A stretch of 64,000 bases of DNA from a virus (lineage: Duplodnaviria > Heunggongvirae > Uroviricota > Caudoviricetes): positions 34,232 through 98,231 of the IMG/VR virus record IMGVR_UViG_3300035655_000051; one strand, given 5' to 3'. Below, piece by piece: positions 28,697 to 63,389 of this stretch. The notes below the pieces were generated by a model. That model was not told where the DNA came from, searched no databases, and was given only the letters and a program-made list of their open reading frames with translations. Numbering within the stretch: position 1 is the first letter of the stretch; each line of letters begins with the position of its first letter. A program made the translations under genes and the position numbers.

Positions 28697-28741
28697 AATG
28701 TTTTCTCCTTTGTAATTAAAGATTGATATGTAAACGGGCAA

Positions 28742-30847: not shown

Positions 30848-30966
30848 ATATAAACCCGGCTTACTAAGCCTTATTGCCACAGCATACGCCATGGAGCCGG
30901 GAATAACAAGGAAGAAAAGAGGTAAAGCCCGAATAGGAGGAATGAGACCCTATAAGCGGGCATCGG

Positions 30967-31035
30967 AGTGACTGGTTGGACTTGAACCAACGGCGCGCAG
31001 TTAGCTTGCTGCTCTACCATCTGAGCTACAGTCAC
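30967..31035 (-). tRNA. atypical short tRNA-like gene (68 nt, anticodon arm and variable loop about 4 nt too short)
   Basis: Perfect acceptor GTGACTG/CAGTCAC, canonical D-arm GCTCAGATGGTAGAGC and T-arm GTTGG-TTCAAGT-CCAAC. Only 19 nt remain for the anticodon arm plus variable loop, with a possible GCAG/CTGC stem and 8-nt loop. Confidence 0.4.
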
Positions 31036-31188
31036 ATAAAATACTCGGCTTACAAAGGTCAACTGCACTCTTTCAAGTGAGCCGAGAATAATTGACGAAG
31101 AAGTATAAAAATGAACTCCCCCTTTCGGGGTGGTATCTCGCACAGGCGCGGCCGGATCTGACCGCTAAAGATCCTACCCATACGAGAT

Positions 31189-31275
31189 TGGTGCTCACAA
31201 GAAGACTCGAACTTCCACGTCATAAAAGACAAGGGACCCTAAAACCCTCGCGGCTGCCAGTTTCGCCATGTGAGC
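31189..31275 (-). tRNA. tRNA-Leu (anticodon TAG), type II
   Basis: Acceptor GCTCACA/TGTGAGC + A + CCA, D-arm GGCGAAACTGGCAGCCGC, anticodon loop TTTAGGG, long variable arm, T-arm TGGAAGTTCGAGTCTTCT. Confidence 0.6.
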
Positions 31276-31412
31276 ATATCAAGAGCAGGGTTGCGTACCT
31301 GCTACGACTTGTTCAGTCACGGTTGTCTTATGTTTGGAGGGACACGAAAACAACTAATCCGATATAAAGGAGAAATATGAGAATACGAGGGACGCAATGA
31401 CCAAACGCCCCA

Positions 31413-31498
31413 TGGTGCAGCTAGTCGGATTTGAACCGACACGGATTTTCACCAGCAGATTTTGAGTCTGCCGCGCCTGCCTATTACGCCATAGCTGC
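31413..31498 (-). tRNA. tRNA-Leu (anticodon CAA), type II
   Basis: Acceptor GCAGCTA/TAGCTGC + A + CCA, anticodon stem GCAGA/TCTGC with loop CTCAAAA, long variable arm, T-arm CGGTTCAAATCCG. Confidence 0.8.
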
Positions 31499-31537
31499 AT
31501 ATTGCTCGTCTTTCCGAGCCGCCACTGCTTGCGCAGG

Positions 31538-32449
31538 TTACTTCATATCGTTCAGTACAGGGATGCTGGCATCACCGCCGACATAAGTAGGAAGCTTACC
31601 ATCCCACTTTTCATACATCTGCTGCTGAATCAGCCGGTCGCTCAGAGACTCAGAGATGATTTTATTCGCCTCGGCTTCTGCGTTCGCCTTGGAAATCTTG
31701 GTCTGGTTCTCAATCTCCTGCGCCTCGTCATTGCGCTCGGCCACAAAGGACTTGTTAATAGCAGCCTGAACAGATGCATCGTCGTACTCAATGCCATCCT
31801 TCATGCCAAGGACAGTAATCGTGATACCGCGCTCTGCAAAATACTCAGTCACATCCTTGCGTACATACTCCATGATCTCGGCCTTCTTCTCAAGGATCTC
31901 ATTCATGGTGTACTTAGCGCACATTTCAACAAAGTCAGCTTCAACACGAGCACGGATTTCAGTATCCATAATCTCGGAGAGCTGCTTGTTGTTGTAGGAA
32001 TACAGGAACTTGACTGCATCATTTTCAGTATAGATCTGAGCAGAACAGTTCATACCGACGGAGAAGCCAATAGACTCCTTGCTTTCGGCAGAGATGGACT
32101 GGTTGATAGTGCTGGTGCCACTATCCTTGCCCTCGGACCATTCACGAGTAACAGGAGTTCTATTGACGACAACCAACATGTTATCCGGAACCCAAGTACC
32201 AATGATGTCAGTCGGCGACAGATGTCGCTTCGAGTAAGTAATGTACACCTGCTTGGCTGCAACCTTTGCCTCGGCGAGCATTTCCTCACTCTCAAAGGAC
32301 GCCTGTTTTCCCCCGCCCTCAGAGAGTGAAATCAGAAATGCAGTTTCATGAGGTTCGATTGTATACACCTCTTTCTTGGTGCATCCCGTAAATGTCAGCG
32401 CCATCACAATTGCACACGAAACCACGAAAATCTTTTTGAACTTCTTCAT
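31538..32449 (-). CDS. SPFH/band-7 (prohibitin-like) domain lipoprotein
   Basis: Signal peptide plus lipobox (LTFTGCT), then an SPFH-like core with a coiled-coil, Ala/Glu-rich C-terminal half. Confidence 0.6.
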   Translation of the reverse strand: MKKFKKIFVVSCAIVMALTFTGCTKKEVYTIEPHETAFLISLSEGGGKQASFESEEMLAEAKVAAKQVYITYSKRHLSPTDIIGTWVPDNMLVVVNRTPVTREWSEGKDSGTSTINQSISAESKESIGFSVGMNCSAQIYTENDAVKFLYSYNNKQLSEIMDTEIRARVEADFVEMCAKYTMNEILEKKAEIMEYVRKDVTEYFAERGITITVLGMKDGIEYDDASVQAAINKSFVAERNDEAQEIENQTKISKANAEAEANKIISESLSDRLIQQQMYEKWDGKLPTYVGGDASIPVLNDMK

Positions 32450-32461
32450 TCGTTCCTCCTT

Positions 32462-32686
32462 TTAATTTTTGAATAGAATATATACCACAGCTCCAATCGC
32501 AAGCGACAGAGCTACAGACACCGAAAGAGCCAATTCGCTGACACGTCCGTAAAGAGAACTTATACTTCCTGTTGCCATTTGAACAAGCGAGATGTGCCGT
32601 AGAAGTTTCTCAAAAATGTCATCGAGACTCAAAAACGAAACAGCCGATGCGCAGGCTGCCAGCAATAAATCTTTATGTTTTTTCAT
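32462..32686 (-). CDS. small membrane protein (74 aa)
   Basis: Two hydrophobic segments. Confidence 0.45.
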   Translation of the reverse strand: MKKHKDLLLAACASAVSFLSLDDIFEKLLRHISLVQMATGSISSLYGRVSELALSVSVALSLAIGAVVYILFKN

Positions 32687-32757
32687 AACTTACCACCTCA
32701 GAATCCTGTCTCAGCTTTTTGCCACAAATTGGGTCGTGATGACAAAACTCACACATT

Positions 32758-32943
32758 TTATTCGTCCTCGACTTCTTCGTCATCTACTACGTAAATCGCG
32801 TCAATTTCCTCATTGTCATCTGGGCTAATTTCTTCAGAATTATAAGCCTCTTCCGCAATCTCTTTTGCCTGTTCTTCAGACTCCGCTGGAACCCACATGG
32901 CATAAGACTGTCGTGTCCAAACGCTTACAAGGTATCGCTTCAT
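32758..32943 (-). CDS. small acidic protein (61 aa)
   Basis: Short ORF ending DDEEVEDE. Confidence 0.4.
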   Translation of the reverse strand: MKRYLVSVWTRQSYAMWVPAESEEQAKEIAEEAYNSEEISPDDNEEIDAIYVVDDEEVEDE

Positions 32944-32947
32944 GAAA

Positions 32948-33265
32948 TCACTCCTCTACCTTAAATACCATGTAGTACATGTGATTATCTTCACCGTTAT
33001 CAACCGCAGCTCCGATAGCATACTCGGGATACGGACACAAAGCACACCCACAGAAATCTGCATAAGAATCAGTGTTAATTCGCGTTGCGTTTTCATACCG
33101 TGCAGCTTCATCGCTTGGCATATTATCAAAGAAGCTCTGATAACTACGAGCAGCAAAATCAATCGCATCACTTCTCGACTGAAATGCTTTATCGAAACTT
33201 ACTGATTTGTAGATGTCAACTTTTTCGTTGGTATAATCGCTTACGACAATGTACATCTGAATCAC
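32948..33265 (-). CDS. hypothetical protein (105 aa)
   Basis: Protein-like ORF. Confidence 0.5.
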   Translation of the reverse strand: MIQMYIVVSDYTNEKVDIYKSVSFDKAFQSRSDAIDFAARSYQSFFDNMPSDEAARYENATRINTDSYADFCGCALCPYPEYAIGAAVDNGEDNHMYYMVFKVEE

Positions 33266-33933
33266 TCCTTCTCAAAGATATCAGTGTACTTGATGTACAG
33301 CTTACCGTTATGATAGTAGGTGTTGTATTCGCACTGGGTCACATACCACCAAGCCTTTTTATGCCCCGCCAGCAGGAGGTCGTGCAGATGATAAGTTTCT
33401 TTGTAGTTTTCATCTACATACTGCCGGAATGTAAGCTCGTCGATATCGTCGCTTTCTTGAACAATAGCTGAAATCTTGCTAACTTCGTATTCGTCCATAG
33501 AATCGTCCACAACGAATACCACTCGAACGATTTCTTTACCCCGGCGACAAATCTTGTAAAGCTCCTCTGCACAATGCAAATGATACACAACTCTATCAAA
33601 CTGTTCGAATGGAAACATTAAAATTCCATCATCATGATCAAAATCATAATAGCTCGTATGCAACTCAATCTTGCGACCAAGCTCTTTACACACCGAAAAG
33701 AATCCTGTCCACCACGCCTGATGTTCCCACCAGTGATAAAGTGGGTCACCGCCACCAGACACAGATACCCAATTGCAGTCATTACATTCGTTTTTCAGAA
33801 CATGCTCCAACTGCATATAAGAAGAATACTCGTCTGTCGGCGTCATCTTGAGCTTGTTATTGCGGACGATACACTCAGGGCAGCTGTAATGGCAACCAAA
33901 GTTCGTGATGATGCTGAGATATTTGTCATCCAT
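33262..33933 (-). CDS. radical SAM enzyme (small, activase/QueE-like)
   Basis: NFGCHYSCPECIVRNN gives the CxxxCxxC cluster-binding motif; SGGGDP glycine-rich SAM motif; 223 aa. Confidence 0.65.
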   Translation of the reverse strand: MDDKYLSIITNFGCHYSCPECIVRNNKLKMTPTDEYSSYMQLEHVLKNECNDCNWVSVSGGGDPLYHWWEHQAWWTGFFSVCKELGRKIELHTSYYDFDHDDGILMFPFEQFDRVVYHLHCAEELYKICRRGKEIVRVVFVVDDSMDEYEVSKISAIVQESDDIDELTFRQYVDENYKETYHLHDLLLAGHKKAWWYVTQCEYNTYYHNGKLYIKYTDIFEKE

Positions 33934-33939
33934 TTTGAT

Positions 33940-34194
33940 TTACTCCTTGTTAATGGTAAGCTGAATAGACCAATAATCTCTGTCGTTTCCAGTGTAAATC
34001 AAAGAGTCCAAAACTTCTGAGTGCCGATCGCACTCGTGATAGATTTCTGGACCATGGCTCTGAAGCCATCCAGACTCCACTCCGAACTTTTTAACGATTT
34101 CTCCTTCATCAATGACTGCGATGCCATCGGAAGCCTTATCTTTCGCTTCTTCAATCATCCATTCAACGATTTCTTTGATATTCAGATTTGCCAT
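33940..34194 (-). CDS. hypothetical protein (84 aa)
   Basis: Protein-like ORF. Confidence 0.5.
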   Translation of the reverse strand: MANLNIKEIVEWMIEEAKDKASDGIAVIDEGEIVKKFGVESGWLQSHGPEIYHECDRHSEVLDSLIYTGNDRDYWSIQLTINKE

Positions 34195-34218
34195 GATTCA
34201 TACCTTCTTTCAAAATGT

Positions 34219-34296
34219 TACTAAAAAATGGTGGGCCAGGAGGGATTTGAACCCCCGATCAAGCAGTTATGAGCTGCCGGCTTTAACCAGACTAAG
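34219..34296 (-). tRNA. tRNA-Met/fMet (or lysidine-modified Ile) (anticodon CAT)
   Basis: Acceptor GGGCTAG/CTGGCCC + A + CCA, D-arm GCTTAGTCTGGTTAAAGC, anticodon stem GGCAG/CTGCT with loop CTCATAA, T-arm GGGGG-TTCAAAT-CCCTC. Confidence 0.8.
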
Positions 34297-34675
34297 CTAC
34301 TAGCCCAAGAGAGGAGGATTTAACCATGTAACGACACCAGCTGAGTACATTGCATTCGACTTACGAACTTTGCGAAATGCAACTTACAGCATCAGTGGAT
34401 ACAACCAAAGCGTCTTAACATCCTGTCCTTTGGTGTCCATCCTCAAAGACTGCCCTTTTAAATTCACTCTCCGCCAGCTTGGGCACCAACTGACTAGACC
34501 ACTTTCGCAGGTCATCCATTCGCCTACTCATGTTGTCACCAGACCTTCACTCCACGAGGAGCTACCCCGTCGCAGTCTGTTCGCACAATTTCGGTCAAAG
34601 CGTTATGAATGCATTGCATCCACGGTGGAATTGCGCCACCCCAGCGACCTCGCACTACACTACGCTGCCACATCG

Positions 34676-34725
34676 AACCTAGCTGGAACCCAACAGAATC
34701 GAACTGTTGTACGACCATCGGCTCC
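34676..34725 (-). ncRNA. tRNA-like minihelix (acceptor plus T-arm only)
   Basis: Minus strand GGAGCCG-ATGGTCGTAC-AACAG-TTCGATT-CTGTT-GGGTTCC-A: canonical T-arm and a 6/7-paired acceptor stem, but no D-arm or anticodon arm. Confidence 0.35.
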
Positions 34726-34829
34726 ATATAAAGCAGGGTTATCGTACCTGCTCGGCATTTTCAGCCACGCGGTTTCGCCTAATGGAAACCGTTTTTATAC
34801 ACACAATAGGCACAGGTAGAAAGGAAAGA

Positions 34830-34906
34830 CCCTGTACCATGGTCGAGCATGAGGGATTTGAACCCTCGACTTCTTGCGCCCAAAGCAAGCGCCCTTCCAA
34901 ACTGGG
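34830..34906 (-). tRNA. tRNA-Pro (anticodon TGG)
   Basis: Acceptor CGAGCAT/ATGCTCG + A + CCA, D-arm GCCCAGTTTGGAAGGGC, anticodon stem CTTGC/GCAAG with loop TTTGGGC, T-arm GAGGG-TTCAAAT-CCCTC. Confidence 0.8.
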
Positions 34907-34974
34907 CTAATGCTCGATATATGCCGGTCTTTCCCGGCTGTCAGTCCCAAGGACAATGGAGGAAAGTAGATAGC

Positions 34975-36492: not shown

Positions 36493-36522
36493 TATGTATA
36501 TTTAAGTCCTGTTTGTGAAATG
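36493..36522 (-). promoter_or_regulatory. conserved promoter-like motif, copy 4 (CATTTCACAAACAGGACTTAAATATACATA)
   Basis: About 25 nt upstream of the RBS GGGAGG / ATG of the Bro-N gene. Confidence 0.4.
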
Positions 36523-36977
36523 ATGATAACACATTTTCTCTGCGTCGTCAATTGTTATTATAAACAGAACTTAAACATACTTTTTGTACTATTTTTGTCG
36601 ACTACCTTATTTATAATAGGCGTTAGGCAGCGCCTCAATTAGCTATGCATAAATCATTGTATATTATTCATCCTTTCTGCATATTTATGCATTATTATTC
36701 ATCGAGATCTAAATGATGTTGTTGCTCTTTTAAGCTCTCAAGAATTGATCTTAAAAAGGTCCCGAAGTTGATCAGTACCCGTCCAACTCGCGTTGATTGA
36801 GTTCAATTGATGAGCTTCTGTCGAACTTTGATGAGTTACTTCGTTGAGTTTCGGGCGTTTTGCAACCAAATCGCCTTGCTCGGCGTTCAGTGGTTCTGGG
36901 TCTGACGTCCGTCGACTCGTTCGGAGGCTGAAGGCAGGCCCCTCCGCCCCGGGATACCTCATCCTACCTTTGCGTAA

Positions 36978-50465: not shown

Positions 50466-50494
50466 TTGCAAATAACAAAAATTTGGTGTATAAT
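50466..50494 (+). promoter_or_regulatory. sigma70-type promoter (TTGCAA-17 nt-TGTGTATAAT, extended -10) for the rightward block
   Basis: Seen directly: cTTGCAAataacaaaaatttgGTGTATAATat. Confidence 0.5.
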
Positions 50495-50504
50495 ATAGGT
50501 ATGA

Positions 50505-50528
50505 TATATTTAAGTCCCGTTTGTGCTG
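50505..50528 (-). promoter_or_regulatory. conserved promoter-like motif, copy 5, facing the ORF-free 48.9-50.3 kb region
   Basis: atatatttaagtcccgtttgtgctg in the same orientation as the other four copies. Here no protein-coding gene follows on the minus strand. Confidence 0.35.
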
Positions 50529-50652
50529 CTGAGAGCATTTCTCGCCCGCTATGTTCTGGCAGCTCAAAATTTCGCCCTTACAAACAGTACTTAAACATAT
50601 TAACCGTAAACGATATCCAATACATCCTTATCAAGGAGGACAATGATCCACT

Positions 50653-51999
50653 ATGAAATTCTATGATACCTCTGCCCTACTAGATCTCCCGCCTGATACT
50701 CTTCTGGCAGAGCCGTTCCTAATTGCTGACATCACTCTCTATGAGCTGGAAGACATCAAGACTAGTGGCAAGAAGGATGAAGCCACCAAAGCTAAGGCAC
50801 GCACCGTCACTCGCCTGCTCGCCGAACATCCAGCAGCGTACACAGTAGTATCTATTGATTACCATCAGCTATTCTCGATCCTGAATGATGTCCCAGTCAA
50901 AGACAACAACGACGGAACGATTATGGCTGCTGCTCGATGGTATCTGAATGAACTGATTGAAAAGAAAGAAGACGCAGAGAAGATTCAGACCAGAACAGGA
51001 GTGTTTGAAAAGTCGGCCGCAGATGAACTTGTAGCCAAGACGACTGCTGATGTTGATTCCTTCTGTTTTGTTACCAGTGACCTAAGCTGCTTCAATCTTG
51101 CGCAGCGGGTTATGAAACTGCCCTGTGAGTTATCTCTTGACTCCTGCGGTGCTCACAATGACTACACTGGCTGGACAGAGGTTGCCCTAGAAGATAGCGG
51201 CGAAGAAGCATTGGCAATGGCCTACTCCAAAGACGTCGAGCAGAAGAACCTGTTTGATACGCCCACGAACGGTTATGTCTTGATTCCAAATGCCGACGCT
51301 GATGGTAACACAGCTGGACTTCGCTGGGATGGCTCGCATTATGTACCTATTAAGTATAAGAATCTGAATACCGCATACTCTGGTAAGATCAAACCACTCA
51401 ACAATCAGCAAAAACTTGCCTTTGACCTACTTCAGAATGACGATATTACAATCAAACTGCTTCTTGGTGTGTATGGCAGCGGCAAGGACTTCCTGATGGT
51501 TAATCATGCTGTTGATCTGATCGAAAAGGGCAAGTATGACAAGATCGTCTGGGTTCGCAACAATATTGAGGTCAAGGACACAAAAGAAATTGGCTTCCTG
51601 CCCGGCTCTATGCTTGAAAAGGTATATCCGTTCGCGGCGAATCTGGCCGATTGTCTTGGCGGCGAGGTTGCATTGGAGCGAGCTATCACTGATGGATGGG
51701 TAGAGATTCAGCCGCTCGGCTTTATTCGTGGACGCAGCTTCAATCGATCTATAATTTATTGCAGTGAAGCGGAAAACCTCACCAAGCAGCATATTCAGTT
51801 ATTGATTGGTCGAGTTGGTGAGGGCAGCACACTGTGGATTAACGGTGATTTGAGACAGATTGACGATGTAGCTTTCGAACGAAATAACGGCATTCAGAAG
51901 TTGATTGATAAACTGGCAGGAAATGAACGCTTTGGAACGGTTTACTTCCCTATTACGGAACGTTCTGAGACAGCCCGTCTAGCTGACATGCTTGATTGA
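50653..51999 (+). CDS. phoH: PIN-domain plus PhoH-like ATPase (PhoH2-type)
   Basis: N-terminal PIN-like MKFYDTSALLDLP...; C-terminal PhoH signatures GFIRGRSFNRSIIYCSEAENLT and LLIGRVGEGSTLWINGDLRQID; Walker A variant GVYGSGKD. Confidence 0.75.
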   Translation: MKFYDTSALLDLPPDTLLAEPFLIADITLYELEDIKTSGKKDEATKAKARTVTRLLAEHPAAYTVVSIDYHQLFSILNDVPVKDNNDGTIMAAARWYLNELIEKKEDAEKIQTRTGVFEKSAADELVAKTTADVDSFCFVTSDLSCFNLAQRVMKLPCELSLDSCGAHNDYTGWTEVALEDSGEEALAMAYSKDVEQKNLFDTPTNGYVLIPNADADGNTAGLRWDGSHYVPIKYKNLNTAYSGKIKPLNNQQKLAFDLLQNDDITIKLLLGVYGSGKDFLMVNHAVDLIEKGKYDKIVWVRNNIEVKDTKEIGFLPGSMLEKVYPFAANLADCLGGEVALERAITDGWVEIQPLGFIRGRSFNRSIIYCSEAENLTKQHIQLLIGRVGEGSTLWINGDLRQIDDVAFERNNGIQKLIDKLAGNERFGTVYFPITERSETARLADMLD

Positions 52000-52408: not shown

Positions 52409-53181
52409 ATATGACTGACATTATTTTATCTGTCGAAAACAATGAAGCAGTGGTATCCAGCCGCCAGATTGCTGAAAATTTTGGAAAACGGCATAACGAT
52501 GTGATGGAAGCAATTCGTAGTATTTTAGCTACGGAAAATTCCGTAACTAAATTTTTTCACGAGTCAACGTTTGAATATAGAGGCCAAACTTTTCCGATGT
52601 ATTTAATGAATCGTGACGGATTTAGTTTACTCGTTATGGGGTTTACTGGTAAATCAGCGCTGGAATGGAAAGTCAAATACATCACAGCATTCAATGAGAT
52701 GGAGAAGCAGCTTACCCAACCAAAGCAGTTATCCAAAACAGAGATTTTATCTCAGGCACTTTTGATTGCTCATGAAGAACTTGAAGAAAGCAAAAAGCAA
52801 ATCACAGCCTTAACGGCAAAAAATGCAGAGCTTATCCCAAAAGCAGAATTCGCAGACGCAATTAGCGCGTCGAAGGCAAGTGTTCTTATTGGTAGTTTCG
52901 CTATTGTGCTAAAGCAGGATGGTTGCGACATTGGCCAAAACCGCCTGTTCAGATATTTACGTGAAAACGGATATCTCATCTCGCAAAAGGGCGATAGATA
53001 CAACACGCCAACACAATGGGCTATGGAGATGGGATTGTTCGAGGTTGAGACTACCCTTTTTACCACAGCTTATGGTAATGCAAAAATTTCTTACACCACA
53101 CGAATCACTCCAAAAGGACAGCAACATCTCATTAATAAACTTGTAAAAAAGTGCGATTCGAATTTGATGGATGTCGTATGA
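52405..53181 (+). CDS. phage regulatory protein Rha N-domain fused to antirepressor KilA-C-type C-domain
   Basis: N-terminus ...VVSSRQIAENFGKRHNDVMEAIRSI... (Rha pattern); C-terminal half ...GSFAIVLKQDGCDIGQNRLFRYLRENGYLISQ... (ANT/KilA-C pattern). Confidence 0.65.
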   Translation: MNMTDIILSVENNEAVVSSRQIAENFGKRHNDVMEAIRSILATENSVTKFFHESTFEYRGQTFPMYLMNRDGFSLLVMGFTGKSALEWKVKYITAFNEMEKQLTQPKQLSKTEILSQALLIAHEELEESKKQITALTAKNAELIPKAEFADAISASKASVLIGSFAIVLKQDGCDIGQNRLFRYLRENGYLISQKGDRYNTPTQWAMEMGLFEVETTLFTTAYGNAKISYTTRITPKGQQHLINKLVKKCDSNLMDVV

Positions 53182-53663
53182 TAGAGGCTTTACAAAATAT
53201 GGAAAAATTTATCGCCCCACGCGGCAGTGGCCGCACCTATCAAATATGTAAATACGCAATTGAAAATGACTGTGACATTATTGTGCCAACGATAAATCAG
53301 TTTAACTACATTGTTGACACAATACAAAAAATATGTTCTGCCTCTGATGGAGAATGGATTTATTGTGGCATTGATAAGCCTGCAGCCACGGTTAACGTTG
53401 CAGTATGGAATGGTCAGCGGCAAATAAAAATTTATGACGCTGGAATTCTTACTATTGCATATTTTATGCATAGTACAAAACCAGTTGTGATCGATGATAT
53501 TGATAAATGTATGGACTACATTGTTGGTAATCGCATGATAGCCGCCTGCTCTATAGCTACGTATGACCCGTCTGATGTCGCATTTCACCCTGAAATCACA
53601 GATGCAGATGATACGGCCATAGGAAGACCAACGCTGCAACTAACCTGTAGGAGTTTGCTATGA
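53151..53663 (+). CDS. CKSLL-tail family member 7 (170 aa, ends ...LQLTCRSLL)
   Basis: Unrelated N-terminal region with the conserved C-terminal tail. Confidence 0.6.
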   Translation: MRFEFDGCRMIEALQNMEKFIAPRGSGRTYQICKYAIENDCDIIVPTINQFNYIVDTIQKICSASDGEWIYCGIDKPAATVNVAVWNGQRQIKIYDAGILTIAYFMHSTKPVVIDDIDKCMDYIVGNRMIAACSIATYDPSDVAFHPEITDADDTAIGRPTLQLTCRSLL

Positions 53664-54004
53664 CAACAGATATTTTTGGAATGACTAATTACAAGAAGAA
53701 TGAGAAAGAAATATTAGAACTCGCAAGTAAGGAAATCTGTGAACAGCTTAGCGAAGAGCTTAATAAAAAAATAGATTCTATTGTAATTCATGTCGATGTA
53801 GACCGCAGATACATACATTATGATCCTCCGTCATCTTTTATGATAAATTCAATGGAGATCTTTAAAGTTGATATCATGTCCGGGTCGCATTTGGAGACAA
53901 TCGAGGGGAAGGCTGCAGAAAGTATTTATAAGCGATATCTTGAATTGGTTGGCAAATATGCGTTGCAATTCAAAAAACCGTTTACCTGTAAGAGCCTATT
54001 ATAA
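53660..54004 (+). CDS. CKSLL-tail family member 8 (114 aa, ends ...FKKPFTCKSLL)
   Basis: Conserved tail; ATGA overlap with the upstream gene. Confidence 0.6.
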   Translation: MTTDIFGMTNYKKNEKEILELASKEICEQLSEELNKKIDSIVIHVDVDRRYIHYDPPSSFMINSMEIFKVDIMSGSHLETIEGKAAESIYKRYLELVGKYALQFKKPFTCKSLL

Positions 54005-54030
54005 ACTCAACAGTTGGAGGACCCCATGGT

Positions 54031-54294
54031 ATGACACGAGAAGAAATTATAAAAGAAGCGATGGGTTACGCACAAATTGGACGCTTCGGTTACTACAAAG
54101 GAACTTACGATGAGATGTTAGCTGTTTTAAAATGTTTTGCTGATACTGATGCAGAATACGTGAATTTTCAAGATATGCGATGGCACTTAGATGAGAAAAA
54201 CGGAAGACTCTATTATGAACGCTTGTTTGATCAATGGGAGCCAAAACCAACGCCATGGTATCAAAAGCCATTTACCTGTAGGAGTTTATTATGA
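54031..54294 (+). CDS. CKSLL-tail family member 9 (87 aa, ends ...YQKPFTCRSLL)
   Basis: Conserved tail. Confidence 0.6.
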   Translation: MTREEIIKEAMGYAQIGRFGYYKGTYDEMLAVLKCFADTDAEYVNFQDMRWHLDEKNGRLYYERLFDQWEPKPTPWYQKPFTCRSLL

Positions 54295-54503
54295 ATCACA
54301 CTGTAACTGCCAGAGTCGCAATGCTGACTTCTGCAAATTATGACGCCAAAAACGGAATCTATGTCCCATTAAGTGACAACAACATGGTGTGGGTCATGCC
54401 ATTCAAATCGTATCGCGATCTTAGAGCGTGGTATTTAAGAGCAAACGATGGTTCAAAAATATTTCATTAGATATGGTTTGGACCCGGGTATACATATAAT
54501 TCC

Positions 54504-54710
54504 ATGAGCGATGTAGCGACACGACTTGCGAAAGAGTTTGATCAGCTTAATGATGTGGATTATTGCAGACTTGCCAATAAAGATGGCATTTTAGATTTGT
54601 TCCATCCTATTGAACTTGACTATACATGGACTTGGGACCATGTCGTAAAAATCAAAGCACCATGGTATGAACGGAATAAAAAGAATCTAGTATGCCACAG
54701 TTTATTATAA
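54504..54710 (+). CDS. CKSLL-tail family member 10 (68 aa, ends ...NKKNLVCHSLL)
   Basis: Variant tail (His in place of Lys/Arg). Confidence 0.55.
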   Translation: MSDVATRLAKEFDQLNDVDYCRLANKDGILDLFHPIELDYTWTWDHVVKIKAPWYERNKKNLVCHSLL

Positions 54711-54741
54711 GTGCGCAGCAGCGCCGCAGAGGGAACTCGCA

Positions 54742-55152
54742 ATGAGAGTATTATTCGTAAAACCAGAAAACTACCAAGCAGTATGTAACTGGTATGACAG
54801 ATTAAAAGAAGTAAAAAATCATCCAAAGACAACTGTAATATGTCAGAGCCCAGAAGAGTTCCGCGCACAGTTCGACAAAGATAAATTTGGAGTCAGATAT
54901 ACTACTTTCTATTTCGATGAAGAATTTGGAATGATCAACACTGTAAAATGTTTCAAAGAATTTGTGAGACTATATGGCGATGAGGATGCGCGTTATATAT
55001 CTGCAACAATGAAAATGAGAACCATCAACATTGACCGATTATTATGGGCTGGTGATTTCAATGTATTTAAAGGATTTTGTATTGAGCCCGACTGTATTGA
55101 TGATGTTATCAGAAGCGCGAAAAGACCGTTGTCATGTAAGAGTCTGTTGTAA
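54742..55152 (+). CDS. CKSLL-tail family member 11 (136 aa, ends ...AKRPLSCKSLL)
   Basis: Conserved tail. Confidence 0.6.
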   Translation: MRVLFVKPENYQAVCNWYDRLKEVKNHPKTTVICQSPEEFRAQFDKDKFGVRYTTFYFDEEFGMINTVKCFKEFVRLYGDEDARYISATMKMRTINIDRLLWAGDFNVFKGFCIEPDCIDDVIRSAKRPLSCKSLL

Positions 55153-55167
55153 TAGGAGATTAACAAA

Positions 55168-55389
55168 ATGGATGTTATTGACTTAGATCTTATTGGGAAT
55201 CCAGAGAACCCTTATCGTTATTGGATATCAAACGATTTAGCAAAAAATGCAACCATTACTATTCCAAAAGAACAGCCTGTAAAAGAATCAGCATGGGATA
55301 GAATAAAAACCATAGAAGAACAAATCGCAGATATTTACGACCAATTAGATAAACTAAAGAAGCCACTTCGGTGCAAATCGCTTCTATAA
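55168..55389 (+). CDS. CKSLL-tail family member 12 (73 aa, ends ...LKKPLRCKSLL)
   Basis: Conserved tail. Confidence 0.6.
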   Translation: MDVIDLDLIGNPENPYRYWISNDLAKNATITIPKEQPVKESAWDRIKTIEEQIADIYDQLDKLKKPLRCKSLL

Positions 55390-56217: not shown

Positions 56218-58767
56218 ATGTTTTCTCCTCCATTGTATAGCGTTTTAAAGTTTCCTCTTAACTATATTATTACCCATGATTATAATTTCAAACTAACTGA
56301 CGAAGAACTTATTCATTTCACTGTGTTACAGGGAGATAATATGATGTTCCGCCAAATTCGTATGATATCTATGAATGACGATAAGTTTCAGAAATTTGTT
56401 GTTTTTGTTGACGCTACAGGTGGATACAACAAACCAAAAGCTCTTGAACGCCTTGTAAAACACGGATTTAAAATCAATGGAGAAACGTATTTGTTTAGTG
56501 AACGCAGTGCAAGTATGGTTCGTCAAAGCATGCTCAGCTTTGTTGAGCGTCATATTGCACCAGAACTTGATAGGCGAATTAGTATGGGGCTTGATTTTTC
56601 TGAAACGCCAACTGTTCTTAGCAAATATTATGCTTATCGTGGTTTGAATCTGTCGTCTGCTTTTTGCTTACCGGAATGGGAACCTAAAATTTGTATCGTT
56701 GATGATTACGAGAACACAATTAAAGACCAAATGGTTGAATATCTATACGATAAAACAACAGAATTCATTGATAAAGCGGGTAACAAAAGAAGTTGGACAC
56801 AAAAAGATGTTGCTGTAAAGAAAGCCGATATCACTATTAACTGCTTCGATGGTGCAGGTATTTGTCACCCAGAAATCATGCGCCAGATTGAACGCAAAAT
56901 AAATACTGATGAACATATTAACAGTTGTATTATTCGCGCACCATATATCAAAGGATGCATGCACGAGATTGATTATGAATCATTTTATGCGGAGCGTGGC
57001 GTTACAAAAATCAAAGATATTTGGGGGCAAGAATATGATGTAACTCCCGGCAGCGAACCACTTATGATTCTTACCGTCAGCCTTTATAAAGGATATAAAT
57101 ATTTCAAGAAAGACGGCACATATAAAGACTGGGAGAGATATTGGGAATGGTTTCGTAAAACAAAAAGCTGCTTTGCTATTGCGAAATGGAATTATAGTGC
57201 TGAACGAGAAAATTTAACCACAAAATGCAATTATCAAATTTTGCAAAATATAGACCTAGAATTCGATGATTTCAAACACTTCGCTGACATGTCTGTAGAT
57301 TTTTATGAAAAGGTCACAAGTGATGATATTTTTTACACTGATTGTTTCCTTGGATTAATGGCTGACGATGTCAATCCTTTGAATCACTATATTGCTGCAT
57401 TAGCACGTAATCAAGAAATGATTCACGAGCCATGCGTTAAAGAGTACGTCCATTCCTTACTTGATAAAACTCGTGATGGATTTAAATGTGGGAAACTCTG
57501 GATGAATGCAACATTTAAATTTTGGGTACCAGATCTTGTTGCTCTAATGGAATGGGCTGGCGGGCTCCCTGTTGTTGGAGCGTTAAAGGCTGGTGAGATT
57601 TATACTTTTGATCGTCGTGGCGTTGCACTTGGAGACCGCATTTGTGAACGAAACCCCCATATATCAAGATCAGAGCACCTGCTTGTTAGCGCCGTCGATA
57701 ATGAATTGACTCAAAAATATTTTCATGGACTTGTAAATTGTTGTTTCACTTCGATTTATGACATTAACGCACCTCGGCTCAATGGTTCCGATTTTGACGG
57801 CGACCTCGTCCTTGTTATTGATGAACCTTCCATGATTCCTGGAGTACATACAGATATTCCTATTACGTTGGATCTTGAGGACAAAAAGACTGCTCTTGCT
57901 GAAACTGATACCCTTGACAATAAATTTGCTTGTACTCTTCGTGGTCTTAAAAGTCAAATTGGCGAGATTTCAAATTTAAGCACTGTCTATCAAAACAAAG
58001 TTCCTAAGACTGAAAAGACAAAACAAGAATATTTGAAATATGTTTCTCTTTTGTCCGTCGCAAATGGAAAGGAAATCGATAGAGCTAAAACTGGCTGCGG
58101 ATATAAGATTCCTAGAAATATACAGAAATATGGTACTGGTCCTAAGAGTACGCCATATTTTATGAAATATGCAGGCCCTTACTATGCACGTTTACATAAT
58201 CTTAGCAAGGCACACAGCAATATGAATTTACTCTGTATGAGCCTCGAGCGCTGGGAGCGTGGAGTCCGTTGGCATAAAGAGCCTGCTGGTAGTTTTGATT
58301 GGCACATAATGTACGATTCGGAAATTGGCTATGATCAGGCTGTATTTAATGAGATTGAAGCAATCTTTCTGGACTTTAATAAATATCGCAAGCAGCAGTT
58401 GGAGCTTGAAAAGAAAGCCAAAAATTGGAAACTTTATCGTAAAGAGCTTGAAGGTATCATGACGAAAGAAGAAGCAAAGACCTATGAAACCAACTGGCAA
58501 GCAATTTATAACGTGTATCGTAATAAGTGCAAGCTGATCTGTCCTGATGTTCGTGAGTTGGCTAATATTCTAGTCGTGTTGTGCTATGAAAAATATCCCA
58601 ACAAATTTAAAAAGTTCCTATGGCACATGGCTGGTGCTGGTGTGGTTGAAAATATCAAACCAGTTCCTGTGCAGTTACCAATTCACGACCCGAACGGCGA
58701 GTATGAATATCTTGGTCAGAGATACAGTCTGGCTGAGCCGAGAACCTATGAAGCGAGGGTGAAGTAA
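56218..58767 (+). CDS. large protein with the DFDGD metal-binding motif: candidate YonO-like single-subunit (two-barrel) DNA-dependent RNA polymerase
   Basis: 849 aa. NGSDFDGDLVLVIDEP recalls the universally conserved NADFDGD catalytic loop of multisubunit RNAP beta-prime and of the SPbeta prophage RNAP YonO. Size is similar to YonO. Confidence 0.45.
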   Translation: MFSPPLYSVLKFPLNYIITHDYNFKLTDEELIHFTVLQGDNMMFRQIRMISMNDDKFQKFVVFVDATGGYNKPKALERLVKHGFKINGETYLFSERSASMVRQSMLSFVERHIAPELDRRISMGLDFSETPTVLSKYYAYRGLNLSSAFCLPEWEPKICIVDDYENTIKDQMVEYLYDKTTEFIDKAGNKRSWTQKDVAVKKADITINCFDGAGICHPEIMRQIERKINTDEHINSCIIRAPYIKGCMHEIDYESFYAERGVTKIKDIWGQEYDVTPGSEPLMILTVSLYKGYKYFKKDGTYKDWERYWEWFRKTKSCFAIAKWNYSAERENLTTKCNYQILQNIDLEFDDFKHFADMSVDFYEKVTSDDIFYTDCFLGLMADDVNPLNHYIAALARNQEMIHEPCVKEYVHSLLDKTRDGFKCGKLWMNATFKFWVPDLVALMEWAGGLPVVGALKAGEIYTFDRRGVALGDRICERNPHISRSEHLLVSAVDNELTQKYFHGLVNCCFTSIYDINAPRLNGSDFDGDLVLVIDEPSMIPGVHTDIPITLDLEDKKTALAETDTLDNKFACTLRGLKSQIGEISNLSTVYQNKVPKTEKTKQEYLKYVSLLSVANGKEIDRAKTGCGYKIPRNIQKYGTGPKSTPYFMKYAGPYYARLHNLSKAHSNMNLLCMSLERWERGVRWHKEPAGSFDWHIMYDSEIGYDQAVFNEIEAIFLDFNKYRKQQLELEKKAKNWKLYRKELEGIMTKEEAKTYETNWQAIYNVYRNKCKLICPDVRELANILVVLCYEKYPNKFKKFLWHMAGAGVVENIKPVPVQLPIHDPNGEYEYLGQRYSLAEPRTYEARVK

Positions 58768-60497: not shown

Positions 60498-60566
60498 CTT
60501 TATTTTCTTAATATATGAAAGGGTATAGCTCTTTCAACTTTAAATTTAAAAGGAGATTTAATACAT

Positions 60567-60772: not shown

Positions 60773-61972
60773 ATGGACGAAATTAAAAAGAATGAATTCA
60801 GAAAGACGGATGACGAATCCTTTGACGAGTACATGATGCGTATTGGCAATGCATGCTCTGAGCGAAAATTAACATGGGATCAAGCAGCCGTAGTTTTGAA
60901 CGAAGCTACAAATTCCAATTTTGGGGAATGTGCTTATCGAAAAAAGTACAAGTCGTGGAAAGCCGGCTACGACTACGCGCTTGAACATATGTGCGGTAGC
61001 ACTGTGGCCGACGAGCTGCAGCGGCTAAAGATAGAACAGGTCAAGATGCGAGACGAGCGGGCGGCAACAAACAAGGTTTATCGTGATATTGCGCGTGCTG
61101 AATCCATCAAGGAAATGATCGCAAGTGCTGTTGTGCCCTACGACAAGAATGATTTCCTGAATATCGTACAGTACGAAGGTAGCGGACATGACTTAATTGT
61201 GTGCCTATCTGACTTACATACAGGCGCTGGCATTGACTCCGCGTGGAACAAGTTTGATAAGGAAATTTTAAAGGCAAGGCTGGAAAGCTATGTCACTCAG
61301 GTATTTAACATCGTTGAGCGACATGCCGCTGAAAAAATCCATGTGCTGTTGCTTGGTGATCTTATCAATGGTCATATTCATATCAACACTCGAGTTCAGA
61401 ACAATGAAAATAGTATCGAACAGGTTATGACGGCCGCAGAGTTAGTGAGCAACTTTGTAGCAGAACTGTACGAAGTATGCCAACATATTGATGTGTATTC
61501 GGTCAGCGGCAATCATTCACGGGTTTTCCCCAACAAGGAAGAACAAGTTGCCGGAGACGAACTCGAAGCGCTGATTCCGTTCTATATGAAGGCACGGCTA
61601 CAGAATCTGGCTGGCATTGAAGTAAAAACAGAGAAACTTGATCCTACGTTTGGTGGATTTAAGGCTCGTAATAGTCTGGTGATGTATGCACATGGAGACA
61701 AAGACTCCCCTGCTAACGTCGTCGAACACTTGACCATGATGGTAAAACAGCCGATTGATCTGGTTTTCCTCGGACATCGCCACACAAACGGAATGACAAC
61801 TGTGCACGGGACAAAAGTTATTGAAAGCGGCTGCGTATGCGGCACTGATAGTTATGCCGTTGGTATTCGTAAGAATGATATCCCACAGCAGGCCGTAGCT
61901 GTTATTGCTGATGATGGTTTGACTTGTCTGTATGATGTGAAGCTGGAAAAGCCAGCAAAGATAGTAATTTAA
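60773..61972 (+). CDS. calcineurin-like metallophosphoesterase (SbcD/Mre11-type fold)
   Basis: Ordered motifs LSDLHTG (DxH), LLGDLINGH (GDxxxxH), SGNHSRV (GNH), GHRHTNG (GHxH). Confidence 0.7.
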   Translation: MDEIKKNEFRKTDDESFDEYMMRIGNACSERKLTWDQAAVVLNEATNSNFGECAYRKKYKSWKAGYDYALEHMCGSTVADELQRLKIEQVKMRDERAATNKVYRDIARAESIKEMIASAVVPYDKNDFLNIVQYEGSGHDLIVCLSDLHTGAGIDSAWNKFDKEILKARLESYVTQVFNIVERHAAEKIHVLLLGDLINGHIHINTRVQNNENSIEQVMTAAELVSNFVAELYEVCQHIDVYSVSGNHSRVFPNKEEQVAGDELEALIPFYMKARLQNLAGIEVKTEKLDPTFGGFKARNSLVMYAHGDKDSPANVVEHLTMMVKQPIDLVFLGHRHTNGMTTVHGTKVIESGCVCGTDSYAVGIRKNDIPQQAVAVIADDGLTCLYDVKLEKPAKIVI

Positions 61973-62149
61973 ACATTGTAATTCATAGAGATTTTTAGAC
62001 GCTCTGGGCTTGACCGCTCAGGGCGTTTTTATATGTCGCAGGTGACAGCGCCGGTGTGCTGACTTGGCTCATAACCAAAGACAGATGCGTTCGACTCGCA
62101 TACCTGTACCCATGAAATTAAATTGTAAAGGAGGTTCCAGAATTCAAAG

Positions 62150-62410
62150 ATGGAAGAAAAATTTCATAAAGATTTAGGAGGCGATTACTTCTACTGCTAT
62201 TCCCGCCGTTGTGCATTCTTTATTCGTGCAATGGGAATTTTCTATGAAGAGATTGGCGAGCATCCAACTACGGGCTCTGTATATACAAAGTTCCATAAAA
62301 CAAAAAAGCTCAATGAAATTTTAAAGCTATGGGATGATATCAAGTATCGCTTCGACAATATGTCAGATGACGGAACGGTGGTGAAGGACTATGGCCAGAA
62401 CTGCCGTTGA
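62150..62410 (+). CDS. hypothetical protein (86 aa)
   Basis: Protein-like ORF. Confidence 0.45.
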   Translation: MEEKFHKDLGGDYFYCYSRRCAFFIRAMGIFYEEIGEHPTTGSVYTKFHKTKKLNEILKLWDDIKYRFDNMSDDGTVVKDYGQNCR

Positions 62411-63389
62411 AAAGAAACCGCCACGCATTAAGGTTCCTGCCTCATGGAGTGGTGGCAAATGTATGTGCTGCGGAAAGATCTATGATGTGCGCAAAGGAAA
62501 TTTCTCAAAGACGCAAAGTCAGTGGTTTATGGGAAACGATGGATATCTGCCGTGGTGCAATGAATGCAAAGAAGAAATGTTTAACTTCTATGTAAAGAAA
62601 TACGGAGACGAAAACGAAGCAATTAAGCGATTAGCTATGCTGTTTGATATGTTTTATTGTGATGGGCTTCTTGAGGCAGCAGAGCACTCTACTCCCGGTT
62701 CTCCAAAAATCAATACATACATGGGACGGCTCAATATGCGCCAGCACGCTGGAAAGTCTTATGACGATACATTGGATCAGGAGAAGAAGGACGCGCTGGC
62801 TGCCGGTCGTACTGGTAACACAAAAGTCACTCAGAAGATGATTAGATTCTGGGGTGATGGATTTGATGAACGTGATTATTTATTCCTTGAGGATCATTAT
62901 CAAAATTGGATCACTCGTCAAGAATGTAAAACTGTTTCACAGGAGACTTTGTTTAAGCAAATTGCAAAAGCAGAACTCAACTCTGAAAAAGCATACGCGA
63001 CTGGTGATACAAAGAAAATTAAAGAAGCAACTGACAATTTATTGAACTTGATGACTTCTGCCAATGTTAAACCTAATCAGACAAATGATAATGCATTAGC
63101 AGAATCAAACACATTTGGAACACTGATTCAAAAATGGGAAGAAGAAGAACCAATCCCAGAACCAGCACCCGAATGGCAAGATGTAGACGGTATCGGCAAG
63201 TATTTTAGGGTGTGGGTATTAGGTACTCTATTGAAGATGTTTAATCTGCCTAATCCTTATCAAGAAGAGTTTGATAAAGAAATGGAAAGATACACAGCTC
63301 ATAAACCATCGACTACTGAAGATGACTCGGCTGACGGCAGTTTACGAGAGACGATTTTCGGTCCTGGCGAAGGCGGTGGTTCGTCTTGA
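62391..63389 (+). CDS. hypothetical protein (332 aa); possible terminase small subunit by position
   Basis: Lies immediately upstream of the terminase large-subunit gene. N-terminal Zn-ribbon-like CMCCGK...CNECKEE and a Gly-rich C-terminus. TerS assignment is positional only. Confidence 0.35.
   Translation: MARTAVEKKPPRIKVPASWSGGKCMCCGKIYDVRKGNFSKTQSQWFMGNDGYLPWCNECKEEMFNFYVKKYGDENEAIKRLAMLFDMFYCDGLLEAAEHSTPGSPKINTYMGRLNMRQHAGKSYDDTLDQEKKDALAAGRTGNTKVTQKMIRFWGDGFDERDYLFLEDHYQNWITRQECKTVSQETLFKQIAKAELNSEKAYATGDTKKIKEATDNLLNLMTSANVKPNQTNDNALAESNTFGTLIQKWEEEEPIPEPAPEWQDVDGIGKYFRVWVLGTLLKMFNLPNPYQEEFDKEMERYTAHKPSTTEDDSADGSLRETIFGPGEGGGSS

Follow-up and report, generated by a model that had tools for sequence, protein, structure and literature searches.

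A YonO relative with a proposed late-operon role in an SPbeta-like temperate phage of gut Clostridia

Among living enzymes, YonO-type polymerases come closest to picturing a single-chain ancestor of all cellular RNA polymerases, and to our knowledge YonO of the Bacillus subtilis prophage SPbeta is the only characterised prokaryotic member of its family. An 849-codon gene with a DFDGD motif in the tailed-phage record IMGVR_UViG_3300035655_000051 raises two questions: whether its product is such an enzyme, and which phage genes it would transcribe. The window analysed here is the whole 64,000-nucleotide stretch from positions 34,232 to 98,231 of that record, and all coordinates refer to it. The gene most likely encodes a YonO-type single-chain two-barrel RNA polymerase of an SPbeta-like temperate siphophage of human-gut Clostridia, with a proposed role in late-operon transcription; from comparative evidence, this reading is given a probability of roughly 0.8.

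Sequence, fold and kinship of the 849-residue protein

56218 to 58767, + strand: gene for the predicted YonO-like two-barrel single-subunit RNA polymerase (ATG start, 849 residues in the list of open reading frames)
56662 to 57087, + strand: first beta-rich barrel, a beta-subunit-like double-psi beta-barrel (DPBB), approximately residues 149 to 290 (from the strand pattern of the model, with boundaries read from secondary structure)
57496 to 57819, + strand: second, beta-prime-like DPBB, approximately residues 427 to 534, with the catalytic loop at its end (from model strands, boundaries inferred)
57790 to 57804, + strand: codons for D525-F-D527-G-D529, the predicted Mg-binding aspartate triad (invariant in 38 homologues and supported by alignments with YonO and QDE-1)

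The open reading frame reported by the sequence-only reading is recovered exactly, and its product matches the Pfam family RdRP (PF05183) with 53.2 bits against a curated cut-off of 23.8 (E = 2.8e-14). The match spans residues 66 to 651 and profile positions 50 to 558 of 582. We take PF05183 to be the two-barrel family of cellular RNA-dependent RNA polymerases (RdRPs) and YonO. It is the sole Pfam family matched at E ≤ 1, with no match to a T7-type RNA polymerase (RNA_pol, PF00940), in keeping with the earlier remark that T7-like motifs are absent. BLASTP against SPbeta YonO gives E = 1e-19 at 23% identity and aligns residues 74 to 814 with YonO residues 124 to 790, over about 740 residues, while tblastn matches YonO with E = 2e-13 and 87% coverage. 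In total 331 homologues were found, many of them on contigs of 100 to 150 kb, and 114 of the 120 homologues listed carry a precomputed PF05183 match. Homology was found to YonO and PF05183 and to no unrelated enzyme family. Judged by its sequence, the protein is a genuine YonO relative, a new member of an already known family.

The segment LNGSDFDGDLVLVIDEP, residues 521 to 537, contains the loop that had been singled out as catalytic. Within it, an alignment of 38 homologues (42–68% identity) shows no variation at G523, D525, D527, G528 or D529, and DFDGD pairs with DNDGD of SPbeta YonO in a pairwise alignment and with DYDGD of QDE-1. Because the loop is invariant in homologues and matched to the YonO DNDGD, it is not a chance pentapeptide. 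The first barrel holds DGxG (residues 211–214) and RxPxxKG (residues 240–246; nucleotides 56935–56955), of which D211, G212, G214, R240, K245 and G246 are invariant in a six-sequence alignment that includes YonO; the same residues, together with P242, are invariant in the 38-sequence alignment. R478, P480 and H481 of the second barrel, IGExSN (residues 581–586) and D621/K624/T625 are likewise invariant with YonO included. All six family motifs (DGxG, RxPxxKG, RxPH, DxDGD, IGExSN and DxxKT) are thus common to YonO and invariant in the 38 homologues. The conserved basic residues of the beta-like barrel, in the R240/K245 region, presumably bind substrate, by analogy with the family.

The predicted structure is of high confidence, and its whole-chain fold, DPBB domains included, resembles that of solved two-barrel members. 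In the model, the catalytic loop is flanked by strands 427–438, 460–465, 472–477, 488–492, 508–511 and 530–534. Its best structural matches are two-barrel polymerases without exception, with RDR2 and QDE-1 as the closest solved structures and no T7-type structure among the fold matches, so the model answers the concern that a double-psi beta-barrel might be missing. A sequence search of PDB chains with the polymerase returned no match, a profile search returned only a weak QDE-1 match (E = 0.35), yet one placed on the catalytic loop, and the searched copy of the PDB yielded no solved YonO structure. The enzymes matched best by fold bear RNA-dependent names, and sequence does not reveal which template is preferred.

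The protein resembles YonO (Forrest et al. 2017, PMC5467207) in length (849 against 839 residues) and in the six family motifs, including DxDGD. It differs in its low identity, just 23%, and in its N-terminal 70–120 residues, which remain unaligned. Neurospora QDE-1 and plant RDR2, also of PF05183, share approximately 13–16% identity with it. Eukaryotic RdRPs take RNA or ssDNA as template in RNA silencing and possess extra head and neck domains; their RNAi context is absent in a phage. Other phage two-barrel single-subunit RNA polymerases are P23-45 gp64 and P74-26 gp62 of Thermus phages, the tape-measure-fused P23-45 gp96 and gp66 of the crAss-like phage phi14:2. The P23-45, P74-26 and phi14:2 enzymes are virion-packaged or middle/late, belong to lytic phages and have different domain additions. 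The window protein has no detectable sequence similarity to any of these and belongs to the PF05183 branch.

Gene neighbourhood and a repeated element of the early arm

60773 to 61972, + strand: YonJ-like metallophosphoesterase/exonuclease (Pfam YonJ_N on an identical product; PHROG 284 exonuclease, E = 2e-57)
62150 to 63389, + strand: first late-operon genes, an 86-residue open reading frame (62150–62410) and a YonG-like gene (62391–63389; Pfam YonG_N/C)

The polymerase gene lies upstream of, and is co-oriented with, the structural/late operon, in a rightward operon with the order PhoH, Ant, small open reading frames, RNA polymerase and YonJ-like gene. Past the window end, the late operon continues with terminase, portal and YonD-like genes; the remainder of the late region was assessed through locus L003 (+10 kb) and through counts of the motif on each IMG/VR contig. 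The downstream products match YonJ_N, YonG_N/C, Terminase_6N and YonD_N (Pfam, products of identical contigs). Since homologues of yonJ, yonG, terminase and yonD follow it, as in SPbeta, the gene is the positional counterpart of yonO. The sequence-only reading, which proposed a YonO-like single-subunit DPBB polymerase from size and phage context, is therefore borne out by the above-cut-off profile, the homology to YonO, the structural matches of the model and this late-operon synteny.

Thomasclavelia phage TR-TP1 has the same gene layout. Relatives occur as prophages in the genomes of Diplocloster and Anaerolentibacter isolates, and a search of GTDB genomes revealed no close relative, an alignment-based search yielding relatives of 39–52% only. 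The host of the window phage is a gut Clostridium-class bacterium, unlike the Bacillus host of SPbeta. A diversity-generating retroelement was sought around the reverse transcriptase, and no template/variable repeat pair was found there. Upstream of the polymerase, 12 small open reading frames have the peptide tail C(K/R/H)SLL in common; as the tail uses differing synonymous codons, these conserved ends were dropped as an explanation of the 22-nt DNA motif noted earlier.

That motif, here motif A, has the form ACAAAC-N3-ACTTAAATAT, and the sequence-only reading suggested that it might be the promoter from which the polymerase transcribes. The sites relevant to this proposal are:

2397 to 2415, − strand: motif A copy flanked by the terminator that follows the MrpR-like gene and by the RBS of an SLT transglycosylase gene (same place in L193 and L194)
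2454 to 3524, − strand: MrpR-like protein, 356 residues, candidate master repressor for motif A (near-cut-off Pfam match)
4098 to 4116, − strand: motif A copy lying 17 nt 5′ of a sigma-70 promoter (12/12 consensus) of the PemK/MazF and MrpR-like operon
28898 to 28916, − strand: motif A copy with a terminator hairpin on one side and, on the other, the RBS of the open reading frame at 28274–28741
36498 to 36578, no strand assigned: second inverted pair of motif A (36498–36516 and 36560–36578), the first copy 7 nt past the −10 of TTGACG-17-TATCAT
50466 to 50494, + strand: sigma-70-type promoter-like site TTGCAA-17-TATAAT with TG before the −10, heading the rightward PhoH-to-YonJ-like operon (conserved in L116)
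50506 to 50598, no strand assigned: inverted pair of motif A (50506–50524 and 50580–50598) just downstream of the 50466–50494 promoter, candidate operator for the polymerase operon

Seven copies of motif A occur in the window, against 0.01 expected for six matches. A promoter function, with the early and accessory genes and the polymerase's own operon as targets, would fit several of its properties. The element is compact (approximately 19–22 nt) and co-oriented with the downstream gene at every site. Between terminator and RBS at 2397 and 28898 nothing else is conserved, and no sigma-70-like site lies within 150 nt; phage single-subunit RNA polymerase promoters often have this look. In IMG/VR, multi-copy exact motif A is found solely on contigs whose polymerase is 99–100% identical. 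The distribution of the motif argues against this function. It is confined to the early/accessory arm, the head of the polymerase operon included, and no exact copy occurs in the 10 kb past the polymerase gene, a stretch that takes in terminase, portal and the head of the late operon. No contig, even among those reaching 150 kb, has more than four exact copies, the number present in the window, so none falls outside the window's arm, and phages with a 92% identical polymerase have no motif A (≤ 2 mismatches) within 10 kb on either side. In the whole TR-TP1 genome and around yonO in SPbeta, only chance-level matches with 2–3 mismatches were found.

The surroundings of the motif point the same way. 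At 3/5 loci it lies over or beside sigma-70-type promoters, and L116 retains the sigma-70 elements of its PhoH-operon promoter but has a different repeat in place of motif A. The motif is present with 87% MrpR-like alleles and missing at the same place with 34–40% alleles. In SPbeta, the counterpart element SPBRE is the operator of MrpR (YopR), and one copy precedes yonP-yonO (Kohm et al. 2023, PMC10516654). Motif A shares with SPBRE a length of about 20 bp, roughly 7–10 repeats, intergenic positions by early genes, co-orientation with the downstream gene and one site at the head of the polymerase-containing operon, which in SPbeta is likewise headed by a repeated element. Both start with ACAAA(T/C) and differ in their remaining sequence, SPBRE as derived from L001 being ACAAATACAAAtAATATGTATA. 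A possible counterpart of MrpR in the window is a putative tyrosine-recombinase-like protein with a candidate MrpR-type N-terminus, whose match to MrpR_N_CB (PF22822; E = 1.9e-5, 25.7 bits) is slightly below the cut-off of 27. Four homologues of this protein (P0122, P0123, P0125 and P0126) have a precomputed PF22822 match, and the best 19 PDB matches of its model (pLDDT 66.5) are all tyrosine recombinases, with weak E-values of 0.035–0.65. Motif A is probably a repressor site, an SPBRE-type operator, and it is improbable that it serves as the promoter of the polymerase; the suggestion that the polymerase transcribes the motif-bearing genes is not supported. Motif A was also considered as a sigma-70 promoter in itself and rejected, no legally spaced −35/−10 pair being conserved inside it or at its edges.

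Template and role of the polymerase

YonO is a processive DNA-dependent RNA polymerase whose aspartate triad is essential, as judged from a 3D>3N mutation (PMC5467207). In SPbeta, 37 late genes expressed from one start site need YonO, and deletion of yonO silences the late genes specifically (PMC5467207). An enzyme that instead uses transcripts of the phage or the host as templates for antisense or double-stranded RNA is highly improbable here. The name of the Pfam family, the closest structures RDR2 and QDE-1, and the GenBank label "RNA-dependent RNA polymerase" on the TR-TP1, PMBT24 and Perkons homologues would favour such an enzyme; YonO itself is DNA-dependent, QDE-1 likewise has DNA-dependent activity (PMC9508822), the position of the gene at the head of the late genes is that of yonO, and the GenBank names are carried over from the Pfam name. 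Phage records routinely mislabel YonO-like genes in this way, and these genes could be renamed YonO-like DNA-directed RNA polymerases. There is only the faintest chance that an active two-barrel polymerase serves a non-late role, such as primer synthesis for phage DNA replication or production of a specific small RNA, as PhoH and an exonuclease-like YonJ homologue in its operon might hint, given that the relative TR-TP1 has its own DnaG-type primase and helicase and that yonO deletion specifically silences late genes (PMC5467207).

Under the favoured reading, a DNA-dependent polymerase of the late operon, host RNA polymerase would transcribe the rightward operon (PhoH, anti-repressor, small open reading frames, polymerase and YonJ-like gene) from the 50466–50494 promoter, which would be guarded by copies of motif A, probably occupied by the MrpR-like repressor in the lysogen. 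Host transcription would end at a terminator at 61997–62028. In the polymerase so produced, the D525/D527/D529 triad is predicted to hold the catalytic Mg2+, with the R240/K245 region of the other barrel holding the substrate. Homology to YonO, a shown DNA-dependent RNA polymerase, suggests that it makes RNA on double-stranded phage DNA. It would then transcribe a single late operon past the terminator, comprising an invariant block, a tRNA-Met-like leader and the YonG-like, terminase, portal and YonD-like genes. This late-operon role follows from synteny with SPbeta, where a single YonO-dependent late transcript begins 5′ of a non-coding RNA.

The head of the late operon and allele swaps of the polymerase

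61997 to 62028, + strand: strong intrinsic terminator (13-pair stem and T run) closing the polymerase-containing operon
62030 to 62061, + strand: invariant single-copy block TATATGTCGCAGGTGACAGCGCCGGTGTGCTG at the late-operon head
62037 to 62112, + strand: tRNA-Met(CAT)-like cloverleaf with encoded CCA, the late-operon leader (relaxed ARAGORN and covariation)
58168 to 58767, + strand: C-terminal helical part of the polymerase, approximately residues 651 to 849, inherited with the downstream late region and separately from the catalytic 650 residues

A terminator of variable sequence lies directly 5′ of a conserved block in every relative. The block TATATGTCGCAGGTGACAGCGCCGGTGTGCTG is the same in 23 distinct variants, which come from phages with polymerase alleles of 61–100% identity, and 82 IMG/VR contigs each contain its first 18 bases exactly once. 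The late promoter may lie at this block. The cloverleaf at 62037–62112 is called as tRNA-Met(cat) by ARAGORN only at -ps80; default ARAGORN calls no tRNA there, and Rfam gives no RF00005 match at E ≤ 1. Its 19 pairs are paired in 99.7% of cells, as against 15–41% in slid controls, and six of the pairs show compensatory changes on both sides. As in SPbeta, the late genes are apparently one operon with a non-coding RNA-like element first; the leader here is a tRNA-like cloverleaf, whereas the yonN-yonK gap of SPbeta contains the DUF3800-VIII RNA (Rfam). The YonJ-like gene precedes the proposed late-operon start in the window phage and follows it in SPbeta. The proposed operon boundary may be wrong, because the YonJ-like gene precedes the terminator and tRNA-like block while yonJ of SPbeta lies inside the YonO-dependent transcript.

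A repeat of SPbeta, TCATTTATGA(A/G)GGT, located near the YonO start-site primers, was compared with window positions 60510–60530. The likeness was dropped because the loose pattern is unenriched (three matches in the window), its bases form a hairpin stem and distant relatives do not have it.

The polymerase alleles of L102, L116 and L121 were compared in blocks of 50 residues, tabulated for residues up to 800 of 849. Blocks up to residue 650 are 42–88% identical, while those over residues 651–800 are mostly 92–100% identical, with one block of 68% (residues 701–750) in L102 and L121. The first 650 residues have been exchanged between phages with an identical late-operon head, so tight promoter specificity in the catalytic part fits poorly. 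A tentative and rather unlikely proposal is that 62030–62112, the block together with the tRNA-Met-like leader, could be the element, long sought, for recognition or initiation by YonO-type polymerases, with the polycistronic late RNA matured by tRNA-processing enzymes and specificity residing in the C-terminal approximately 200 residues, the part co-inherited with the block. The polymerase would in that case start at, or be recruited through, a tRNA-like sequence right after the terminator that stops the host enzyme. The YonO family is common in large temperate phages of human-gut Clostridia, and it supplies a confident structural model, natural alleles in which the catalytic 650 residues change while the late-operon head stays constant, and one sharply bounded, single-copy candidate region for promoter hunting.

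The YonO-like polymerase gene and its surroundings

The 849-aa reading frame with a DFDGD motif singled out by the sequence-only reading was confirmed as an ORF with an ATG start (56218-58767, plus strand). The peptide quoted there corresponds to residues 521-537, and the DFDGD codons occupy nt 57790-57804. Genes run leftward before ~50.5 kb of the window and rightward beyond, and base composition and strand skew shift near the same position. The sole Pfam family matched is PF05183 ('RdRP', the two-barrel family of cellular RdRPs and YonO), with a score of 53.2 bits (curated cut-off 23.8) over residues 66-651. In PHROGs, the protein matches phrog_8308 (E 5e-92), which has no given function, and weakly a family annotated as RdRP. 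Direct BLASTP against YonO, the 839-aa single-peptide RNA polymerase of the Bacillus subtilis prophage SPbeta, gave E 1e-19 across residues 74-814, with DFDGD aligned on the DNDGD of YonO. A tblastn search of phage records retrieved uncultured human-gut phages (62% identity), Thomasclavelia phages TR-TP1/TP2 (39%), Enterocloster, Psychrobacillus and Clostridium phages, and yonO of SPbeta and its relatives (22-23% identity, 87% coverage, E 2e-13 to 4e-19).

A large protein collection contained 331 homologues (E<=1e-5). Six motifs are invariant in an alignment of 38 sequences (42-68% identity), namely DGxG 211-214, RxPxxKG 240-246, RNPH 478-481, DxDGD 525-529, IGExSN 581-586 and DxxKxG 621-626, and they are retained in YonO too, except N479 and G626. 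They are the counterparts of the signature motifs of eukaryotic RDR/QDE-1 enzymes. The AlphaFold model built from this alignment is confident (mean pLDDT 91.3, pTM 0.86) and points to a double-psi beta-barrel around DFDGD, and homology to an unrelated enzyme family was not found. Its top Foldseek matches in the PDB are all two-barrel polymerases: the best are RDR2 of maize and Arabidopsis together with QDE-1 (E ~1e-21, TM ~0.5, ~900 columns), followed by a P23-45-type phage RNA polymerase (8f72, E 5e-6) and crAss-like phi14:2 gp66, and then by beta-prime/RPB1 subunits.

The co-oriented products 3′ of the gene match Pfam families that take their names from SPbeta late genes (YonJ_N, YonG_N/YonG_C, Terminase_6N and YonD_N), and the SPbeta gene order yonO ... 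yonJ, yonG, yonF, yonE, yonD is the order seen here. TR-TP1 has a matching layout: its polymerase gene opens a ~47-kb stretch of co-oriented lysis and structural genes, and its opposite strand holds replication genes, an 'integrase' and MazF. The identical protein is carried by many contigs of 100-300 kb. More distant relatives (39-52% identity) occur in isolate genomes and MAGs, mainly of Clostridia (Diplocloster, Anaerolentibacter, Lachnospiraceae and Oscillospiraceae). By position, the gene therefore corresponds to yonO, and the phage is a temperate, SPbeta-like one that infects gut Clostridia. Family match, YonO homology, fold and gene position bear out the proposed YonO-like single-subunit RNA polymerase, and we infer with good grounds (probability about 0.8) that it acts as a late-gene DNA-dependent RNA polymerase.

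YonO is a processive DNA-dependent RNA polymerase with an essential aspartate triad; 37 late SPbeta genes need it and are transcribed from a single start, which lies before an unannotated non-coding RNA and yonK (PMC5467207). Bioinformatic work that Forrest et al. cite (PMC5467207) had already described YonO-like proteins in Firmicutes prophages. In sequenced gut phages, homologues already carry an annotation, namely 'RNA-dependent RNA polymerase', and the PMBT24 paper leaves its homologue undiscussed. The main value of this phage clade is as material for finding a YonO-type promoter.

Motif A and a candidate MrpR-like repressor

The polymerase had also been proposed to transcribe genes carrying a repeated 22-nt motif, probably ACAAAC-N3-ACTTAAATAT (motif A), with these copies:

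2397-2415, leftward
4098-4116, leftward
28898-28916, leftward
36498-36516, leftward
36560-36578, rightward
50506-50524, leftward
50580-50598, rightward

A search of the window allowing three mismatches recovered six of the seven, against 0.01 expected. Every copy is co-oriented with the gene after it, and two divergent regions each hold a pair arranged as an inverted repeat. The copy at 36498 begins 7 nt past the -10 of TTGACG-17-TATCAT, the copy at 50506 begins 11 nt past TTGCAA-17-(TG)TATAAT, and the one at 4098 ends 17 nt ahead of a perfect TTGACA-17-TATAAT; beside such sigma-70-type promoters, these are operator positions.

In SPbeta, the master repressor MrpR has an operator, SPBRE, repeated in early-gene promoters, with sites that include yonP, the gene immediately before yonO (PMC10516654). 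The element recovered from the yonX, yonT and yonP regions is ACAAATACAAAtAATATGTATA, which, like motif A, starts with ACAAA(T/C) and is co-oriented with the gene after it. An ORF with motif A on both sides (2454-3524, minus strand) matches Pfam MrpR_N_CB at 25.7 bits, slightly below the cut-off of 27, and four of its homologues carry the match. Its model is moderate (pLDDT 66.5), and the 19 best PDB matches, although weak, are all tyrosine recombinases. PemK/MazF, the MrpR-like gene and SLT form a conserved cassette, in which the two syntenic sites retain motif A when the MrpR-like allele is 87% identical and lack it when the allele is 34-40% identical. On these sequence comparisons, motif A probably behaves like SPBRE, with the MrpR-like protein as candidate repressor, and we somewhat favour its being an SPBRE-like operator for that protein. 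A pure operator model leaves the copies at 2397 and 28898 unexplained, where motif A is the only conserved element between terminator and RBS.

That motif A is instead the promoter of the polymerase is improbable, and the proposed link is probably wrong. Besides the operator-type positions, the repressor candidate between two copies and the SPbeta precedent, its distribution argues against this: copies are restricted to the early/accessory arm or the head of the polymerase's own operon, and none lies in the 10 kb after the polymerase gene, late-operon head, terminase and portal included. Motif A is missing from the 10 kb on each side of the polymerase gene in phages where that protein is 92% identical, and in the relative locus L116 the PhoH-operon promoter keeps its sigma-70 elements with a different repeat in place of motif A. 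Same-phage IMG/VR contigs (<=150 kb) hold at most four exact copies, the window's own number; because the motif-bearing contigs all represent one phage species, co-occurrence of motif and polymerase cannot tell polymerase from repressor.

L093 is a relative whose polymerase is 92% identical. Its PhoH-operon promoter region (3900-4205) is unrelated in sequence to that of the window and has a sigma-70-type promoter, then a terminator-like hairpin where motif A would be, so that this operon may be under another regulatory module there.

Gene mosaicism and the proposed late-operon head

Phages with near-identical neighbouring genes (YonJ-like 83-96%, 86-aa ORF 83-100%) carry polymerase alleles that are 61-70% identical. 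Between the window and the relative loci L102, L116 and L121, divergence is confined to residues 1-650 (42-88% identical), whereas the 50-residue blocks that span residues 651-800 mostly reach 92-100% identity, one block falling to 68% in L102 and L121; together with the genes 3′ of the polymerase, these blocks are mostly 83-100% identical. This contrast places a recombination joint inside the polymerase gene, with the C-terminal helical part travelling with the late region.

The proposed start of the late operon is marked by the following elements:

61997-62028, plus strand, strong terminator after the YonJ-like gene
62030-62061, plus strand, invariant block (TATATGT and the first 25 nt of the cloverleaf)
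62037-62112, plus strand, tRNA-Met(CAT)-like cloverleaf of 76 nt with encoded CCA, starting 8 nt after the terminator

The block is identical in every relative with a 61-100% identical polymerase, despite varying upstream inserts, and a search for its first 18 bases finds a single occurrence in each of 82 IMG/VR viral contigs. The cloverleaf, with a C1xA72 mismatch, anticodon loop CTCATAA and T loop TTCGACT, is uncalled by Rfam and by ARAGORN at default settings and is called by relaxed ARAGORN. Across 17 variants, some with a long variable arm, 99.7% of cells are paired versus 15-41% in slid controls, and the anticodon and T stems contain six pairs with compensatory changes on both sides. A covariance model found similar uncalled elements in the relative loci L135 and L174, just past the yonJ-like block, and in L179 a genuine tRNA-Met at the same place, heading a tRNA array. 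With a terminator followed by a single-copy invariant block and a tRNA-like element at its start, the late-operon head would therefore be the natural place to seek the polymerase's promoter.

SPbeta (L001) has a gap of 1.7 kb between yonN and yonK, where Rfam finds a DUF3800-VIII RNA (47.5 bits, 10033-10098) ~260 nt before yonK, and primer-extension primer positions put the YonO start >1.1 kb upstream of yonK. The repeat TCATTTATGA(A/G)GGT occurs twice in this gap (8907-8925 and 9064-9082), around the published primers for that start. Either the repeat or the RNA could bear on the YonO promoter or leader.

Other features of the window

A set of twelve short reading frames, 77-174 codons long from stop to stop, end in ...(K/P)(P/N)(L/F)xC(K/R/H)SLL, directly followed by a stop:

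17934-18230, 20559-20825, 20826-21116, 21127-21402, 22233-22682 and 28934-29233, minus strand
53139-53663, 53651-54004, 53992-54294, 54471-54710, 54691-55152 and 55156-55389, plus strand

Synonymous codons vary among the copies of this tail, so the peptide is conserved and not the DNA. Six of the frames immediately precede the polymerase gene, and 10/12 match no Pfam family. The common C-terminal tag might be a targeting, packaging, degradation or modification signal.

Further genes include:

23175-24410, minus strand, retron-type reverse transcriptase
24703-25377, minus strand, adjoining protein with an E1/ThiF-like stretch
1768-2373, SLT transglycosylase (auxiliary)
13631-15109, nicotinamide phosphoribosyltransferase (auxiliary)
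50653-51999, PhoH-like ATPase (auxiliary)

The reverse transcriptase matches PADLOC RT_II-A (E 2e-37), and no DGR-type template/variable repeat was found near it; with its E1/ThiF-like neighbour, it may form a defence or counter-defence module carried by the phage. The leftward arm carries eleven tRNA genes (179-1764 and 30379-34916, minus strand), for Phe, Asn, Arg, Gly (two), Thr, Leu (three), Met and Pro.
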